Shown here: piece after piece, positions 45,001 to 54,000 of the stretch | How positions within the stretch are numbered: the first letter of the stretch is position 1 | How the letters are laid out: each line of letters opens with the position of its first letter | DNA from: Candidatus Omnitrophota bacterium | Lineage (GTDB): Bacteria; Omnitrophota; Gorgyraeia; Gygaellales; Profunditerraquicolaceae | Assembly: GCA_030693145.1 (NCBI GenBank) | Contig: JAUYBI010000041.1 | Coordinates: 10,228-74,227, forward strand | Direction of reading: 5' to 3' | DNA: 64,000 nucleotides | Notes under the pieces: model-generated | What the model was told of the DNA's origin: nothing | The model's input: only the letters and a program-made list of their open reading frames with translations | Database searches by the model: none | Made by a program: the position numbers and the translations under genes

Positions 45001-48000
45001 GAGAAGGCCGGATGATGAAAAAATGTTTAAGTTTAGGCATAGACGTTCCTGTTGGGCAGCAATTTGCAGAGTGGGCATTTATTGTGATAGACGCGGGATT
45101 TGTTAATCAGTTAAATAATCAGGATACCGCAGGCATTCTTAAGGAAGGATTTGAAAGGTATAGTAAATATATTCTTGGAAAAAATGTTCCCGAAATAAAC
45201 TTAGGCGAATATGCGGATTTTGTAAATAAAGTAATTATTGCCCGCGAAAGCCCACTTGAACAGACTAGGCATGGCGGCCAAGAGCTAGATATACCTGAAG
45301 AAAATTATAAGTTAATGGAGTTATTGAGCCCATATATTGATTTATTGATGGAAAGCGAGTCGTTGAACAAAATAATTACGCAAGCTCAGCAGAATGTTAT
45401 TAATGAAAAAGGCATTAGCAAGGTAGATTTAAGGTCAGAATTTACGGAGAAAACTACTCAAGGATTATTGAATAATAATGAAGGCGAATTTTCGGTATTT
45501 AATGAGGGAAAAGAAGGTGTTAGATATATAGGTGAAGATGGCGGAAGAAGTCAAAAATTAGGGAGCTTTGCCGGAAGAAATATAGGTTTTTTTTATGGAA
45601 ACTTATTAAAATCTTTTCCAAAGCACCTATTATTATTTAAGAAGTTTAAGGAATTGTTCCGCGGATATGCCCGCATCTTTGCCGGAAAGCAAGGGCGGCT
45701 TCATATCGCCAGGCTTAGGACCTTATGGGTTGAATTTGGACGGATATCCTTTGGATTGGGTTCTAAATATAATAGTATTGCTTCTTTAATGTTCTTAATA
45801 GTTTCTTTCTCGGTCTTGCCTTGGCTGTGGCATCCGGGCAATGAAGGAACGCTTGCGGCAATATATCCGTCTTGGCCTTTTTCAAGTACGATTTTGAGTT
45901 TCATTATTATCACCTCCCTAAACAAATATACAGTAGATAATTTACTAAGTCAAGGCGATTTTGGCGTCATCTCGAGAAGATTAACGGACGGCGGCAGGAA
46001 GGAAAAGGCACAAGTTGGAAAAGCAAAAGATGGCGGAGCGCTTGATTTACTTAGTATCCAGAGGCTTACGGAATTAAGAATTACCTGTGCGGATTTTCAG
46101 GCAATTGAAGTTTTAAAAAAGAGAGTTGGCCTTATACCGGAAGGAGCTTCTTTCGGTGTTACCTATAAGAAAGGAATGTATCGGTTGGTAACTTTTAATA
46201 GCCTGTGTTCGCAGGGAGAGATCGCTCTGGGCAGGGCGCAAGGATTTGATGCAAGCGCGGCAGTGGTTAATTTTAGCAAAATCTTAGAAGACAACAATGG
46301 TTTTGGAGGGGATCAAATAAAAAATGTTTTAGTAATAGGCCCGGGAAATACCCTGGCGGAAGTTAAGTTATTATTGTCAAAAAATCCGAATTTAGAAAAA
46401 GTGTCGGTTGTTGAATGGCTTAGGGGCAATATTACCGGTTTGTTAGATGAATTAGGCGCGATGCCAAAAGAGGAGAGGGCAAGCATTGAGGTTTATTGCG
46501 TTGATCCTAAAAATACGCCTTTTAACGAAAATAGCTTTGGCTTAGTTTGTTCTAATAAAAACGGCGGTACGAAAGTATTTGATGGCGGGCGGGAGGTTTA
46601 CGGAAAAGAAAGCATCAAAGGTAGTATGGCGAATTTAATTATCCGTTTATTCAGATTGGTAGCGGATTTTGTTAAGTCATTAAAGGCCGAATCATTAGGA
46701 AAAAGCGCGGTGATTTTAGCGCCGCCTAGCGTAGATCTCAATTCTTTACTTGATATTAATAACTTGTTATTGGCCGCCGTTGGAATTTTAATAGGGTTTA
46801 TCGGCTTTAAACTTTCCTCCTCAGCTAATTCTTACCGTAGGTACAATAATCTTATAATCATCGGGCCGTACAGTTTTTCGAGAAATCCAATATATTTAGG
46901 CGGAAATTTAGAATTCATTGGTTTAAGCATAATTGTGTGGGCTTTTGATCCTTTAGCGGGATTTGTCTTTACGATGATATCTGTAGTGTTTATTTTGTTA
47001 GATCCTTCTATAATTTGGGCTGAAGAAAAAAAACTTAAGTACGAATATGGCGATCAATATAAACAATATTGCAATTCTGTTCCGAGATGGTTTTCTCTCA
47101 AGCTGTTTTTGAAATTTATTGCTTCCAGTAGAGCAAAAGAAGCTTCTGAAGAAATCGTCACAAGCCATACCTCAAAAGACGGCGGCAGGCAGGAAAAGGC
47201 TCAAGGCGCAAAGTATCCTTCGCCAACGTTGGATTCCGCAAAAATGATATGGGATACTCTTGCAAGGTTTATTCCTCGGGCTGGTTGGTTGAGGCCGCAA
47301 GGAGTTATCCATATCCTTGATGTGGGCTGCGGTAACGCGTTTGGAGCGGCTTCATTTATAAGTTATTTTGGAGGAAAGGAGTTTGGAGAATTTAGCAGTG
47401 ATGTAAAGGTAGTATGTTTAGATATTGAGCCTAGAACTCCGCATAAGTACCTTAAGTTAATCGTAGGCGTGGAAAAAGAAAATGAATTTGCCGGGAATAT
47501 AAAATTTGTGCAGGAAGACGCGAGATATTTGTCTATGCTGAAATATAAACATCAGGATTTGCCCAAGGAATACGAAGTGATAATATTGAGAAATCCCGAT
47601 CCTCGGTTAATCAATAAAACTATTATAAATACAACTATTTTAGAGGAAATAATTGAGCAATGTTTAGCTAACCTTAAAGATAATGGCCTTTTTATCATTA
47701 CAGCCAACAGGGATTTTATAATTAATGCTGCCGAAAAAATAATATCTTTTTACTATAATCCCGAATATCTTAGTTTTTATTTAGATAAAAAAGTAGGCCG
47801 GGAAAACATTCCTTTCTCTGGCGAAATATTTTTTGATTCTTATATTACGATAGCGGTTAAAAGATCCAGAGAGGTAATTAACAATCCTAGGCTAAGAGAA
47901 GAAGGGGCAAATATTGCTGGCGGGAAAATTCAAAATAATGCGGAGAAATTTGACGGCGGCAGGGAACTATTTGGAATGCCGGTAATGGCAAGAATAGTAA

Positions 48001-51000: not shown

Positions 51001-54000
51001 AATACGATATATCCCAAGGGAGCTTAAATAAGGCAAGCGATGAGCTTGAGGGTATATCCGCGGCTAAAGATATAGAGTCCATAGAAATTTTCTACCGGAA
51101 TATAACTCAAGGGGTTTTTGAAGCGGCAAGGAATAAAGCGCCGCCTTTTGGAAATACCGCCAATGACGGCGGCACGGTTGGGCTTACTTTTTATTCTTTG
51201 CGAAGACGATATTTATCAGCATCTACGATAATGAGAGCCTTTTTAAATGCGGCAGGTTTGAGTTCTTCAAGCAGTTTGATTAAAGTATCGTGGATTTCTT
51301 CTTCTAATCTATGGCGAAACCGTAGAAGCACGATGCCATGGTGCAATTTGGGCGGATATAATTTGATATTACTAAAGTCCGTATCTTCAGTAACCAGAAT
51401 CCTCTTTTTCTTTATCGACCATTTAAGAATCTCAAAGTCTGACTTGCCACCGAGGGTTGCTTCTTTAGCAGTAATTACGGAATATCCTAATTTGCGCAAT
51501 AAATTTATTGTGGGTAAGCCTAAACATTCATCAGCTAAGAATTTTATTCTGCTGCGCTTATCTGACAAGGTGGACGTCCTCGTTCTTTACGAGTTGATTG
51601 GCGTATTCTATGCAAGCCTTGATGTCTTCTTTACTAATTTGCGGGAAATAATCGGTGATAATTTGGTCGAAAGTGAGCCCGTCTTCGAGCAGGTCAAGTA
51701 TTTGCCAGACCATAATGCGGGTTTTGCGGATAGCGGGTTTTCCGTGGCAAATTTTCATATCTACGGTTATACGATCAAACATTTTGCATACCTCCTTAAC
51801 AATGGAAATAAGTCTAGCATAGGAATATCACAAAGTCAAGGCGTCAAAAGAGGCGGCGGTAATGTTTCCCGGGATGTCACCCTTGGCCGCTCAACGCGCT
51901 TTGACGGCGGCGCGGCGAAGAAAAAAGCAAAACTGCCCCGGATTTTATCCGCGTTAGCTGCAGCGCCTGTTTTGTTGACCTTAGTTTCAATTTGGCTTTT
52001 TTATAAGGGTGAATTAGGTCTATCAATTATGATTCTTTTTACTTCACCAGTATTCTCTATTGTTTATCTAATAACGTATAAAGCTTATACTGAAAAAGCA
52101 ATTCTCGAAGCTTTTACTGAGGCTCTTATTGAAGCTGTTATTTTAGCCTTACGCGACCCTAAAGTGATGGTTTATTTACATCCTGAAGTTTCTCTTGGAA
52201 AAGATGCCCAAGAGATGATGGTGCAGATAGGCGGATCCGGCGAGAATAACAAAATTTTGCAGTTAGGCCAAACAGAATTTTCGTTCCAAGATAATTCGTT
52301 AAAGATATTTAAAATACATATTGTTCCTCCGGAGTCAGATATCTGGGGACCGATTATTGGTGTTGGTAACGTTTTAGTAGAAATTTGTTTAACAACCGCT
52401 GAATTAGAGGAGATTAATAAGAGGTTAAGAGCGCAGAGCAGTAATGCCGTAAAAAGCCTTGACGGCGGCAGAAAAATAGAACCATCCCTAATTATTACAC
52501 AAACTACTAAGCAGTCTCCTGCTAAAAGAACCTCACAGCAATTAATACTAAACCTTTTTAGTTTAGAAAGTAAACTTAGTGATTCTAACTGGACTGTCCG
52601 CCGTGCAGCAGCTGGTGTCTTGGGCCCGGTGTATGCGGCACTGATAAAAGAAGGAAAAGAAGTTTCTTTAACTCTCTTAGAAAGTAAACTTAATGAAGGC
52701 GGCGAGGATCTTAGCATTGCGGCAGCTAGTGCTCTTGGCCCGGTGTATGCGGCACTGGTAGAAAAAGGAAAAATGTCTTTGTCCGTTCTGGAAAATAAGT
52801 GGACCGACCCTAACGAGTATGTCCGTCTTGCAACATCTAATGCCGTAGACTTGGTGTATCTGGCGTTGATGAAAGAAGAGAAAGAAGTTTCCTTATCCTA
52901 CTTAGAAAGTAAGCTTACCAACCCTGACTGGTCTATCCGCAGCCGGACAACAGCTAATACCTTAGGTCTGGCGTATACGGCCTTGATAAAAGAAGGCAAA
53001 GAAGTATCCTTATCCGTCTTAGAAAGTAAACTCGATGACCCGAGCGAGTATGCCCGCCGTGCAGTAGCTGATGCCTTAAGCCTAGCGTATGCGGCGCGAA
53101 TAGAAAAAGGAGAGATTTTAAATGAGGATTATAATAAATATACGTTATGGACAAAAAGCAATTTACCTTATCAAGGTAAATTAATTAAGCAATACCTTGT
53201 TGCTTCCGATGCGCAGGGATTTATTTCCAGCCTTAAGCGTAAAGCAGAAAACGCAATTAACCGCGGCTTTGATTATAAGAAGGAAAAAGATTTGTGGCTT
53301 GCTTATCTGGGCATAAGGACTGCCGGTATTAATATAACCTATGAGGAATTTAAGCAAAGGATGAGCAAAATCGCCGAATTTGATGGCAAACACCCAGGGT
53401 ATTTTAAGAAGCTTTTTACCAAAGCAGCCAAACCGATAGTAATTGAGCTTAGCGCGGAAGGAGTCCGCCAGATGGATACTTCTAGCGTGGACCTAAAAGT
53501 ATTCAGTCAGAATCTCGCTGAACTTGATTATGTGCGCCTGGGGATAGACAGCTTTAGCTGGATGGATGAGGACTTTCAGCAAAGCAAGGTTTTTAACCTG
53601 CGTAACCTCTATTATCTTCTTAAGCGCCATCAGGCGCAGGAGGCAGGCATAGTAAAAGAAAGAGAACATTTTAGGTGCGAGTTCCCTCAGGAAGAAGCGA
53701 TGAGGCGAGAGCTTCTAGCTAACAGGAAAAGTTTCTACAAAATAGTGTTTTCTTTGGCAAAAGACAGGTTAGGTGACCGTAGTATAGGCCCAAAATGCCT
53801 TCTTCTTATGCGAGATTTGATCATAAGCGATATCATGCTTGATGATGGTCTCTTAAGTCAGATGCGTTCTTCTGATTCTGAAACCAAGCTTTCTGCCTTT
53901 AAGAATTTCTATGAAGACTATAAGAACCATCTGCCTAATTCCTTAGGATTACGGGTAGCAAATATTAAAGGCTTACGGAAATGTTTTGAGGATTTTTCTT

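Follow-up and report, generated by a model that had tools for sequence, protein, structure and literature searches.

AGTCAA hexamers in a giant Omnitrophota reading frame as probable -35 boxes of nested antisense toxin-antitoxin operons

The window (the whole 64-kb stretch of DNA that was analysed) is a single stop-free plus-strand ORF of at least 21,332 codons. The frame starting at nucleotide 3 contained no stop in 21,332 codons, versus 712-2294 stops in the five other frames. Its in-frame Pfam domains included PGI, PGM, hexokinase, 6PGD, DegT, APS kinase, radical SAM, methyltransferases and a weakly matching HEAT, and the best match of the PGI module (78% identity) was labelled 'Candidatus Omnitrophica bacterium'. 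The gene is divided into modules by a junction word, GACGGCGG (Asp-Gly-Gly, DGG). It is a predicted 'Archaeovorin'-like giant gene of Omnitrophota, and the entire plus frame is presumably translated. Archaeovorin genes, too, are ORFs of great length; they encode HEAT repeats, methyltransferases and enzymes of sugar-phosphate metabolism, among them glucose-6-phosphate isomerase and phosphoglucomutase, and their cleavage points were stated to be unknown (West-Roberts et al., 2023, 10.1101/2023.11.21.568195). The Archaeovorin-type domain set comprises HEAT, glycosyl- and methyltransferases, peptidases, SecA-DEAD and many transmembrane regions; the window has HEAT (weak), methyltransferases, PGI and PGM, and no SecA-DEAD, C39 peptidase, glycosyltransferase or transmembrane hallmark was seen in this 64-kb piece. 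No recombinase domain was present among the Pfam domains of the window, and a search for close relatives of the DGG-type giant gene found none.

Small operons of toxin and antitoxin families lie antisense between the DGG words and leave the host frame unbroken. Each cassette consists of two small, adjacent, co-oriented genes (HicB/HicA, DUF433/DUF5615 or DUF4258/DUF2283). The predicted cargo of cassettes 1 to 4 is hicB with a hicA remnant, a DUF4258 pseudogene with DUF2283, hicBA, and DUF433 with DUF5615, respectively. The giant frame and the cassette genes are as follows.

3-63998, plus strand: giant-gene frame, single and continuous, open at both window ends and thus part of a giant multi-enzyme gene
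44294-44804, minus strand: fifth nested cassette, with a DUF5647 gene (44294-44566) and a truncated DUF7718-like gene (44559-44804)
45633-45704 (approximate), minus strand: hicA toxin remnant of cassette 1 with an internal deletion, HicA N- and C-terminal ends only
45701-45904, minus strand: hicB antitoxin gene (67 aa) of cassette 1, GGGAGG Shine-Dalgarno sequence, Pfam HicB_lk_antitox 3.5e-8, above cut-off
48231-48440, minus strand: DUF2283 gene (69 aa) of cassette 2, partner of DUF4258, Pfam DUF2283 1.1e-17
48444-48671, minus strand: DUF4258 toxin-like pseudogene of cassette 2, Pfam DUF4258 1.9e-9 when reading through the stop, in-frame TAA at 48621-48623
50361-50594, minus strand: hicA toxin gene (77 aa) of cassette 3, 4-nt overlap with hicB, Pfam HicA_toxin 5.7e-22
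50591-50818, minus strand: hicB antitoxin gene (75 aa) of cassette 3, Pfam HicB_lk_antitox 1.5e-11
51191-51568, minus strand: DUF5615 PIN-like/Mut7-C gene (125 aa) of cassette 4, toxin-like, Pfam DUF5615 6.2e-23
51558-51782, minus strand: DUF433 gene (74 aa) of cassette 4, antitoxin-like, Pfam DUF433 4.5e-22

The curated Pfam cut-offs were exceeded by HicA, HicB (twice), DUF433, DUF5615, DUF2283, DUF4258 and DUF5647 (7.8e-22), and the DUF7718 match of the fifth cassette (1.9e-4) was below its cut-off. The cassettes are predicted type II toxin-antitoxin (TA) operons, a function assigned here from sequence; DUF433/DUF5615 and DUF4258/DUF2283 we take to be TA pairs, as comparative-genomic predictions have it.

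Upstream of cassettes 1 to 4, the following boxes were located.

45925-45930, minus strand: -10 box TATATT, cassette 1
45948-45953, minus strand: -35 box TTGACT, cassette 1, host AGT CAA (Ser-Gln), 17-nt spacer, 49 nt to the hicB ATG
48679-48684, minus strand: -10 box TACGGT, cassette 2
48702-48707, minus strand: -35 box TTGACT, cassette 2, host Ser-Gln, 17-nt spacer, 36 nt to the GTG start
50839-50844, minus strand: -10 box TATTTT, cassette 3
50862-50867, minus strand: -35 box TTGACT, cassette 3, host Ser-Gln, 17-nt spacer, 49 nt to the hicB ATG
51811-51816, minus strand: -10 box TAGACT, TG-extended, cassette 4
51834-51839, minus strand: -35 box TTGACT, cassette 4, host Ser-Gln, 17-nt spacer, 57 nt to the DUF433 ATG

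Sigma-70 promoters have a -35 box near TTGACA and a -10 box near TATAAT, 16-18 nt apart. All four sites have this arrangement upstream of a gene start: on the minus strand, TTGACT is followed after exactly 17 nt by a TAnnnT -10 box, of which TACGGT in cassette 2 is the weakest. The distance from the -35 box to the start codon ranged from 36 to 57 nt. A GGAGG Shine-Dalgarno sequence and an ATG were found in cassettes 1, 3 and 4, and cassette 2 had a GTG start and no clear Shine-Dalgarno sequence. Along with the spacer and the -10 box, the putative promoter has an A/T-rich tract and CTTGACTT, and (C/T)CTTGACTT is present at all four cassettes. Thus, the proposal of the first-pass annotation that AGTCAA, the reverse complement of TTGACT, marks a minus-strand -35 box at four cassettes was borne out by the 17-nt spacer, the TAnnnT box and the Pfam-supported gene start, and we infer that the four sites act as promoters. 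The fifth cassette has a promoter-like site, TTGACA-17-TATACT (44746-44718, minus strand), whose phase differs from that of the other four.

On the plus strand, the hexamers begin at 45948, 48702, 50862 and 51834, all multiples of 3 and so in codon phase 0 of the sole open frame. They are read there as SQG, SQD, SQG and SQG (LLSQGD, MISQDG, SPSQGK and SQSQGV), as annotated earlier. A DGG word had been claimed 30-66 nt behind each hexamer, and the gaps that we found were 33, 30, 57 and 63 nt (39, 36, 63 and 69 nt from hexamer start to word start in cassettes 1 to 4). The hexamer itself is ordinary and not enriched, with 32 copies on both strands versus 27 expected; the 23 plus-strand copies fall into phase 0 (7), phase 1 (6) and phase 2 (10). 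These counts, and the 19 further plus-strand copies in all phases, would suit a reading in which the four hexamers are functionless chance matches in AT-rich DNA. We find that reading scarcely credible: on the minus strand, each of the four is followed by the 17-nt spacer, the TAnnnT box and, at 36-57 nt, the start of a gene with Pfam support, and the same element is kept in orthologous cassettes of other samples, which already contradicts chance. Further, 5 of the 23 plus-strand copies stand at most 70 nt ahead of a DGG word, a space that makes up 5.3% of the window (binomial p = 0.006).

The only other AGTCAA as close ahead of a DGG word, at 14887, is in phase 1, and none of the other 49 DGG words of the window has an in-phase copy in the 70 nt before it. 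Both observations bear on the idea that the giant protein uses Ser-Gln-Gly as a peptide motif, perhaps as part of a processing signal before DGG, and that the motif is selected in the protein while its likeness to a promoter is incidental. SQG does lie 10-21 residues before a DGG word, and about 14 other long proteins have SQG or SQx at the corresponding place. However, a peptide signal would not account for the many DGG words that lack the hexamer, nor for the codons, which are always AGT CAA G in the cases verified on DNA and so point to conservation at the nucleotide level. Further, the same promoter is read as Val-Lys in three giant ORFs from other samples (L016, L018 and L024), and, across cassettes, conservation is lower in the host frame than in the TA frame. 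We consider a peptide motif very improbable.

Conservation of the TA frame versus the host frame between hosts was 86.6 versus 78.8%, 71.6 versus 65.2%, 83.8 versus 54.1% and 73.8 versus 56.6%. The host-frame translation of the cassette stretch had no Pfam match and looks like filler. The chance of an open host frame, given the TA protein sequence and the codon usage of the genome, was 0.003-0.11 per gene. TTA, CTA and TCA are absent from the three genes that lie codon-for-codon antisense, even though 39% of Leu codons are TTA. Among 80 hicB relatives in JGI metagenomes, 78 were not open on the antisense strand (longest open stretch, 60-762 nt); the two that were open, in L018 and L024, lie in ORFs that fill the contig or the fetched 12.2-kb stretch. 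About 14% of hicB genes were stop-free in the antisense frame used in the window, and a strict TTGACN-N16-18-TAnnnT promoter within 95 nt of hicB was found in 12 of the 80 relatives. Ordinary chromosomal hicBA and DUF433/PIN-like loci share with the nested cassettes the gene families, the bicistronic order, the overlapping stop and start and the upstream sigma-70-type promoter. Unlike the nested cassettes, they are not open on the opposite strand.

The host-frame translation from cassette 3 to cassette 4 matched 76 cluster representatives, of which 20 are 835-6753 aa long. Some matches, with the cassette right at the N-terminal end, may stem from ORFs called too long and not from true nesting. 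Nesting was verified on DNA in six metagenomic ORFs (L001, L015, L016, L017, L018 and L024). HicB of cassette 1 is 87-88% identical to the nested HicB of L001 and L017, and DUF433 of cassette 4 is 84% identical to the nested copy in L015. The orthologous cassettes, hicBA in L001 and L017 and DUF433/DUF5615 in L015, share CCTTGACTT, the 17-nt spacer and the Ser-Gln reading, so the earlier suggestion that hexamer and phase did not originate four times from nothing was upheld.

Among 12 verified nested promoters, every hicB gene starts in phase 1, and every DUF433 or DUF4258 gene starts in phase 2. For the -35 box, phase 0 (Ser-Gln) is used by the window, L001, L015 and L017, and phase 2 (Val-Lys) by L016, L018 and L024; phase 1 did not occur. 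The distance from the -35 box to the DUF433 start was 57 nt in the window versus 75 nt in L015, and orthologous distances differed by multiples of 3. Each cassette lineage thus appears to keep its phase, indels presumably having to be multiples of 3. The shared phase of the four hexamers would have a probability of 1/27 if they were independent. By itself it is weak evidence, because cassettes 1 and 3 are homologous hicB cassettes, both with 49 nt from -35 box to ATG, and because the 12 promoters occupy no more than two of the three phases. The use of a single -35 phase per host (4 of 4 in the window, 3 of 3 in L016) may mean that promoters were homogenised in each host, instead of being inherited and agreeing by chance; in L016 this is clearly so.

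The junctions that flank the cassettes are listed below.

45987-45995, plus strand: DGG word GACGGCGGC, right of cassette 1 (left word, 45537-45545)
48738-48746, plus strand: DGG word, right of cassette 2 (left word, 47952-47960)
50295-50341, plus strand: 47-nt extended junction repeat, family D3 (other copies at 50886-50932, 51864-51910 and 54558-54604; 66-83% identity to the reference copy)
50334-50342, plus strand: DGG word on the left of cassette 3, hicA stop codon 18 nt further on
50925-50933, plus strand: DGG word, right of cassette 3
51165-51173, plus strand: DGG word on the left of cassette 4, DUF5615 stop codon 17 nt further on
51903-51911, plus strand: DGG word, right of cassette 4

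The first-pass annotation had suggested that promoter and DGG junction form a common right-end structure, which may have been spread by one insertion or duplication mechanism. On this view, which can be widened to gene conversion, word, phase and distance would be identical by descent. Such ends do exist in the related giant ORF L016, where three cassettes with different cargo (two hicBA and one DUF433/DUF5615) share one phase and hardly differ in promoter, 5'UTR and upstream junction for more than 100 nt. In ASPL-type hosts, too, the junction word closely follows the -35 box (6 to about 14 codons). Within the window the idea held in part. Alignment of the right ends revealed CTTGACTT, at all four cassettes in its (C/T) form, the -10 box, the Shine-Dalgarno/ATG region and a GC-rich junction in common, and nothing further. 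From -35 box to DGG, cassettes 2 and 3 (p = 0.02) and cassettes 3 and 4 (p = 0.06) were alike when compared with shuffles and no other pair was; cassette 1 has a junction without similarity to the other three. The junction-proximal segments of cassettes 2, 3 and 4 belong to repeat families D3 and D4. From start codon to -35 box, in contrast, no pair was similar (p = 0.19-0.97, hexamer excluded), and the gap between -35 box and DGG varies from 30 to 63 nt. The likeness between cassettes 2 and 3 and between 3 and 4 is due to the junction repeat, which also stands at promoter-less junctions (50295-50341, on the left, 3' side of cassette 3, and 54558-54604). The parts shared in the window are thus the promoter consensus and a promoter-independent junction repeat. 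Further, cross-host homology of the cassettes ends just upstream of the -35 box and just past the last stop codon, and the junction word depends on the host (DGG in the window, ASPL in L001 and L017). The junction therefore belongs to the host gene and not to the cassette, and we regard a copied right-end module as an unlikely origin of the four hexamers.

We favour, with good though not complete confidence, the explanation that the hexamers are -35 boxes of antisense TA operons nested in a giant stop-free gene, whose open frame keeps their phase. It draws on the observed promoter anatomy, gene identities, open frame, codon co-adaptation and recurrence in other giant ORFs. The weak -10 box of cassette 2 and the decay of the toxin partner in cassettes 0, 1 and 2 speak against it. 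Each minus-strand sigma-70-type promoter would transcribe a small type II TA operon leftwards, nested antisense within the linker segments of the giant plus-strand gene. As no stop can be admitted in the giant frame, a cassette would double as host codons throughout, its promoter included, and in the window the -35 box would land on AGT CAA, or Ser-Gln. The hexamer would be identical because these cassettes use a near-consensus -35 element (CCTTGACTT) wherever they are found. The phase would be identical in cassettes 1 and 3 because of their common hicB type and spacing; in a nested cassette, indels between promoter and gene would survive only in multiples of 3, so that phase is frozen and inherited in each lineage. 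The remaining agreement among three cassette families would be within chance, at about 1 in 4 to 1 in 9. The cassettes are probably selfish TA modules that came in by insertion and were tolerated only when free of stops in the antisense direction; they may then spread among giant genes.

Known antisense overlapping genes are believed to have originated de novo within a gene that was there before them. Like the overprinted antisense genes of bacteria and viruses, the cassettes encode opposite-strand proteins on the same DNA under mutual codon constraint; unlike them, each is an old, conserved gene pair with its own promoter inside a giant host frame. Antisense genes, nested TA operons and the DGG junction word are not mentioned in West-Roberts et al. 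(10.1101/2023.11.21.568195) or in a 2026 Omnitrophota survey (10.64898/2026.06.07.730766), and no description of TA operons nested in a giant gene was found in the literature searched.

The TA cassettes of the Vibrio cholerae superintegron type also resemble those of the window, being type II TA operons with their own promoters scattered among promoter-less modules with a repeated junction. An attC site is an imperfect palindrome of 57-141 nt with R''/L''/L'/R' boxes. No attC site was found at the cassette ends; unlike this folded site, the junction word has 8 nt, or 47 nt in its four extended copies, and there was no Rfam match in the window. In an alignment fold, the junction consensus formed a weak hairpin (-7 kcal/mol) with an unfavourable covariation term. 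Neither an intI tyrosine recombinase nor an attI site was found within the 64-kb window, which is wholly one ORF. The 'array' of the window further differs from an integron in being one continuous reading frame, so its cassettes are stop-free on the opposite strand. Integron TA cassettes are thought to stabilise sedentary chromosomal arrays (PMC13108822), and nested TA cassettes may stabilise giant genes. Both partners are intact in cassettes 3 and 4, and the toxin has decayed in cassette 1 (hicA deletion) and cassette 2 (TAA in DUF4258); the partner gene of the fifth cassette is truncated.

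The host reading frame was open from nt 3 of the window and ran on the plus strand through 21,332 codons with zero stops; the other five frames contained 712-2294 stops. The frame encoded a DegT aminotransferase, an APS kinase, a radical SAM/B12 module, three phosphoglucose isomerase (PGI) regions and a phosphoglucomutase; 6-phosphogluconate dehydrogenase, 6-phosphogluconolactonase, hexokinase and an ARMT1-like phosphatase; and methyltransferases, an amidohydrolase, HUMPS/SIS and HEAT repeats. This domain set partly matches that of the 'Archaeovorin' giant genes of Omnitrophota, and the top database match of one PGI module (78% identical) was labelled Candidatus Omnitrophica. 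An Rfam search over the whole window returned no family. The frame also contained internal duplications, namely of a PGI module (24225-25867 and 29571-31306, 79-86% identity), of a 102-nt module start (12519-12620 and 15753-15854, 91%) and of an 89-nt linker ending in ...RY(V/I)GEDGG (43145-43233 and 45473-45561, 78%). The idea that these duplications were bounded exactly at Asp-Gly-Gly (DGG) words was rejected, as their boundaries were located near, not on, such words.

The first-pass annotation had singled out the plus-strand word AGTCAA, the reverse complement of TTGACT, as the -35 box of four cassettes, read in the host frame as Ser-Gln and followed closely by DGG. The four words were located at 45948, 48702, 50862 and 51834, every coordinate being divisible by 3. 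The host frame read LLSQGD, MISQDG, SPSQGK and SQSQGV, and DGG followed the end of the hexamer after 33, 30, 57 and 63 nt. The promoter assignment also held in the sequence: on the minus strand each TTGACT was followed, after exactly 17 nt, by a TAnnnT hexamer placed upstream of the start of a toxin-antitoxin (TA) gene. Thus, four consensus-like predicted promoters face left inside the giant gene, each before a TA operon, as follows.

TA cassettes on the minus strand of the window (genes of cassettes 1-4 assigned with Pfam) and their predicted promoters; distances to the start codon are counted from the 5'-most base of the -35 box
45701-45904, minus strand: cassette 1, HicB; -10 box TATATT, 17-nt spacer, Shine-Dalgarno site and ATG, 49 nt
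48444-48671 and 48231-48440, minus strand: cassette 2, DUF4258 and DUF2283; -10 box TACGGT, 17-nt spacer, GTG start, 36 nt
50591-50818 and 50361-50594, minus strand: cassette 3, HicB and HicA; -10 box TATTTT, 17-nt spacer, Shine-Dalgarno site and ATG, 49 nt
51558-51782 and 51191-51568, minus strand: cassette 4, DUF433 and DUF5615 (PIN-like); -10 box TAGACT, 17-nt spacer, Shine-Dalgarno site and ATG, 57 nt
44294-44804, minus strand: fifth cassette, DUF5647 and a truncated DUF7718-like gene; TTGACA in a different phase

The Shine-Dalgarno sites of cassettes 1, 3 and 4 were of the GGAGG type. AGTCAA was not enriched in the window (32 observed versus 27 expected on both strands), and the 19 other plus-strand copies were spread over all three phases. 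A position no more than 70 nt upstream of DGG, a space covering 5.3% of the window, was occupied by 5 of the 23 plus-strand copies (p = 0.006). The copies at 45549-45554 and 43235-43240 were rejected as promoters because they had no -10 partner; they stand 12 and 26 nt past DGG words, within or adjoining the duplicated linker …GEDGG(R/S)(S/N)QKL….

All recognised TA-family matches of cassettes 1-4 exceeded the curated Pfam cut-offs; NCBIfam had no models covering these small proteins. DUF433/DUF5615 and DUF4258/DUF2283 are TA pairs by comparative-genomic prediction. Two cassettes were complete. In the other three (1, 2 and the fifth) the toxin-side gene had decayed and its partner was intact. 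Thus, hicA of cassette 1 (approximately 45633-45704, minus strand) had undergone an internal deletion that kept only the first 9 and last 14 codons, and the DUF4258 gene of cassette 2 carried an in-frame TAA at codon 17 (48621-48623, minus strand). Decay of the toxin ahead of the antitoxin is expected for TA modules that are, or formerly were, active. In the left part of cassette 2 (47961-48230, 270 nt from the DGG word to the DUF2283 stop) the host frame was the sole intact ORF on either strand, and this part may be a decayed third gene. Ten of the longer remaining minus-strand ORFs (98-171 aa) had no Pfam match, and antisense genes proper are therefore limited to 44.2-51.9 kb. The GC content of the cassettes (0.37-0.42) did not differ from that of the host (0.39), so that there was no compositional sign of foreign origin.

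The cassettes are kept free of stops in the host frame by codon choice. When each TA protein sequence was held fixed and synonymous codons were drawn from the giant gene's own usage, the probability of a stop-free host frame was 0.003-0.11 per TA gene. Further, TTA, CTA and TCA were absent from the three genes lying codon-for-codon antisense to the host, and TTA makes up 39% of the leucine codons in window DNA. Among 80 hicB relatives from JGI metagenomes, examined as a control, 78 had a longest antisense open stretch over hicB of 60-762 nt; in the two exceptions, loci L018 and L024, the antisense frame remained open along an entire 1.4-kb contig and along all of the 12.2 kb retrieved. Approximately 14% of hicB genes are stop-free by chance in the frame used here. 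Taken with the control, this indicates that an entire stop-free cassette is rare yet attainable. Between hosts, the TA frame was better conserved than the host frame of the same DNA (86.6 versus 78.8%, 71.6 versus 65.2%, 83.8 versus 54.1% and 73.8 versus 56.6%), indicating that selection acts on the TA proteins and that the host frame need only stay open.

The same arrangement recurs in unrelated giant ORFs. When the host translation of cassette 3 through cassette 4 was compared with 1.84 billion cluster representatives, 76 matches were obtained, 20 of which were proteins of 835-6753 aa. Nesting was verified on DNA at six loci: L018, L024 and the following four.

Further loci with verified nested cassettes
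L001: ENA contig
L015: NCBI GCA_030691585.1, 18.6 kb, open throughout
L016: JGI contig, three cassettes within a 6657-aa ORF
L017: JGI contig, two cassettes

HicB of cassette 1 shared 87-88% identity with its nested counterparts in L001 and L017, and no similarity was detectable between the giant ORFs of the window and of the other loci surrounding related HicB cassettes. A word-index search of proteins with a 2320-aa host translation returned P0001 as the sole match, and no relative of the 465-aa module that separates cassettes 2 and 3 was found when metagenomes were scanned. Between hosts, homology was confined to the DNA bounded by the -35 box and the last gene's stop codon. The cassette is therefore a promoter-to-stop unit and the junction is a property of the host. 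Some matches, with a cassette at the extreme N-terminus and then a stretch resembling a signal peptide, may reflect ORF calls extended too far, not nesting. Transmembrane or signal-peptide-like stretches directly followed the cassette in the host frame of many matches (including P0023, P0025, P0066, P0069 and P0006), and one also followed cassette 4 (51912-52100). The stop codon of the 6657-aa L016 ORF (20198-20200) falls within the 3' end of a ParE-like/MazE-like pair on the opposite strand (20197-20737), and the contig ends soon after; the pair may be a nested TA cassette whose stop terminated the giant frame. The L001 contig carried Illumina adapter sequence at both ends (1-51 and 16925-16973), which are therefore artefactual.

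We tabulated the phase of the 12 nested promoters verified on DNA. The hicB start was in host phase 1 throughout and the DUF433 or DUF4258 start in phase 2 throughout, which we read as each family being usable in one antisense frame only. The -35 box was read as AGT CAA (Ser-Gln) in the four cassettes of the window, in hicBA of L001 and L017 and in the DUF433 cassette of L015, and as GTC AAG (Val-Lys) in L018, L024 and all three cassettes of L016; the third phase did not occur among the 12. Similarly, 'SQ' stood at the equivalent place in approximately 14 long protein matches and 'VK' in approximately 10. The distance from promoter to gene was 57 nt in cassette 4 and 18 nt longer (75 nt) in L015, which leaves the phase unchanged; orthologous cassettes keep their phase because an indel of any length not divisible by 3 would break the host frame. 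Thus, the Ser-Gln reading appears to be inherited with cassette lineages. Cassettes 1 and 3 are of the same lineage, both having the 49-nt distance that is also seen in L001 and L017, and the window's three lineages would agree in phase by chance with a probability of approximately 1/4 to 1/9. Stop avoidance was rejected as the cause of the Ser-Gln phase, since both the AGT CAA and the GTC AAG phases were found nested. By our own reasoning, the third phase would be only mildly disfavoured, because TAx could arise beside the -10 box.

The annotation had further proposed that the window's cassettes share a right-end structure, promoter plus junction, possibly spread by a common insertion or duplication mechanism. 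Such ends exist in L016, where promoter, leader and upstream junction were nearly identical among two hicBA cassettes and one DUF433/DUF5615 cassette; copying of such ends from one cassette to another is therefore possible inside a giant gene. In the window, however, the four right ends had only consensus elements and the junction in common: their alignment shared (C/T)CTTGACTT, the -10 box, the Shine-Dalgarno/ATG region and the GC-rich junction. No pair of segments from start codon to -35 box was similar when compared with shuffles (p = 0.19-0.97), and among the segments from -35 box to DGG only cassettes 2 and 3 (p = 0.02) and 3 and 4 (p = 0.06) stood out. The source of this similarity was the junction repeat (families D3 and D4), which also lies on the promoter-less left side of cassette 3 (50295-50341) and at the cassette-free position 54558-54604. 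Similarity past the hexamer was largely lacking in the window, and AGTCAA occurred elsewhere in every phase. We consider it quite unlikely that the window's right ends were copied between cassettes.

The junction words themselves were strongly over-represented. The window contained 53 DGG tripeptides versus 5.8 expected, and the word GACGGCGG had 30 copies, all on the plus strand in phase 0 (for example, 24108, 29484, 47178 and 52461); the minus strand had no copy. In the first two DGG codons the wobble bases were fixed against the codon bias of the genome (GAC 68 versus 21%, GGC 70 versus 30%) and in the third the wobble base was free, indicating that the constraint acts at the nucleotide level. 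Candidate roles for the word are those of a recombination site, RNA signal or processing site. Every TA cassette filled one DGG-to-DGG segment. The left DGG word was 18 and 17 nt from the last stop codon in cassettes 3 and 4, and the -35 box was 57 and 63 nt from the right DGG word. An extended 47-nt junction repeat, GTTTCCC..CACCCTTG.CCGCTCAGCGCGCCTTGACGGCGG, was located at 50295-50341, 50886-50932, 51864-51910 and 54558-54604. It flanks cassette 3 as well as the complete block formed by cassettes 3 and 4, the outer copies are 83% identical, and it has the appearance of a duplicated junction. Among genome contigs, the 20-nt junction repeat had 13 matches, random ones in GC-rich genomes; among viral contigs it had none. 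L001 and L017 use a different GC-rich word, GCC TCG CCG CTG (Ala-Ser-Pro-Leu, ASPL; GCCTCGCCGCTG), which flanks their nested TA cassettes as DGG does in the window. ASPL occurred 14 times in L001 versus 0.13 expected (L001 76-16940), and 12 of 13 copies in L017 had identical codon sets (L017 20-15298). No obvious junction word was found in L015, L016 or L024.

Taken by themselves, the promoters and TA families are unremarkable representatives of known types. The nested arrangement is not described in the Omnitrophota giant-gene papers that we text-searched (West-Roberts et al., 2023, bioRxiv 10.1101/2023.11.21.568195; 2026 survey, 10.64898/2026.06.07.730766), and a wider literature search was likewise empty. 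The closest parallel is with the TA cassettes carried by sedentary chromosomal integrons; unlike these, the window had no integrase and no attC-like structure by folding or Rfam, the junction repeat giving a weak hairpin fold with no covariation support.

A type II TA complex represses its own promoter. RNA polymerase probably initiates at the four nested promoters, and such repression would limit head-on interference with the giant transcript. The cassettes are probably selfish modules, able to persist in linker segments only if the frame is uninterrupted, and stop-free versions, once present, could spread among giant genes. They may also guard the long, modular gene from deletions, a role that has been proposed for promoter-bearing TA cassettes of chromosomal integrons (PMC13108822). 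A broader reading, which we regard as unlikely, is that giant genes are translated cassette arrays, in which modules (enzymes or antisense TA operons) are shuffled at host-specific junction words by integron-like site-directed recombination, one ORF is kept and the TA lineage hops. The junction words may then be the GC-rich GACGGCGG in the window and GCCTCGCCGCTG in L001 and L017; hicBA and DUF433/PIN would be a specialised stop-free TA lineage hopping between the giant genes of different bacteria; the cassettes would protect deletion-prone giant genes through post-segregational killing; and the junction word might double as a polyprotein processing site.

As a by-product, the hexamer-phase pattern matters less than the nucleotide-level junction words and the nested TA operons that preserve the frame. 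Complete, conserved TA operons with their own predicted promoters run backwards in a frame open for more than 64 kb, with codon usage bent for both strands. The need of the cassettes to be stop-free implies that translation, or translation-coupled transcription, would have to pass through them; stop avoidance thus bears on whether Omnitrophota giant genes are expressed as single units. Further, the cassettes and junction words mark module boundaries, which published giant-gene work calls unknown. Gene callers suppress nested genes, and the exact product of the nested HicA was absent from an index of 153 billion genes; the TA content of such genomes is therefore under-counted. In one of the protein matches, P0031 (ENA ERZ27297570), three antisense TA cassettes lie in a 5930-aa ORF that directly follows dnaA-dnaN-dciA-gyrB-gyrA on the same strand and thus adjoins the replication origin.
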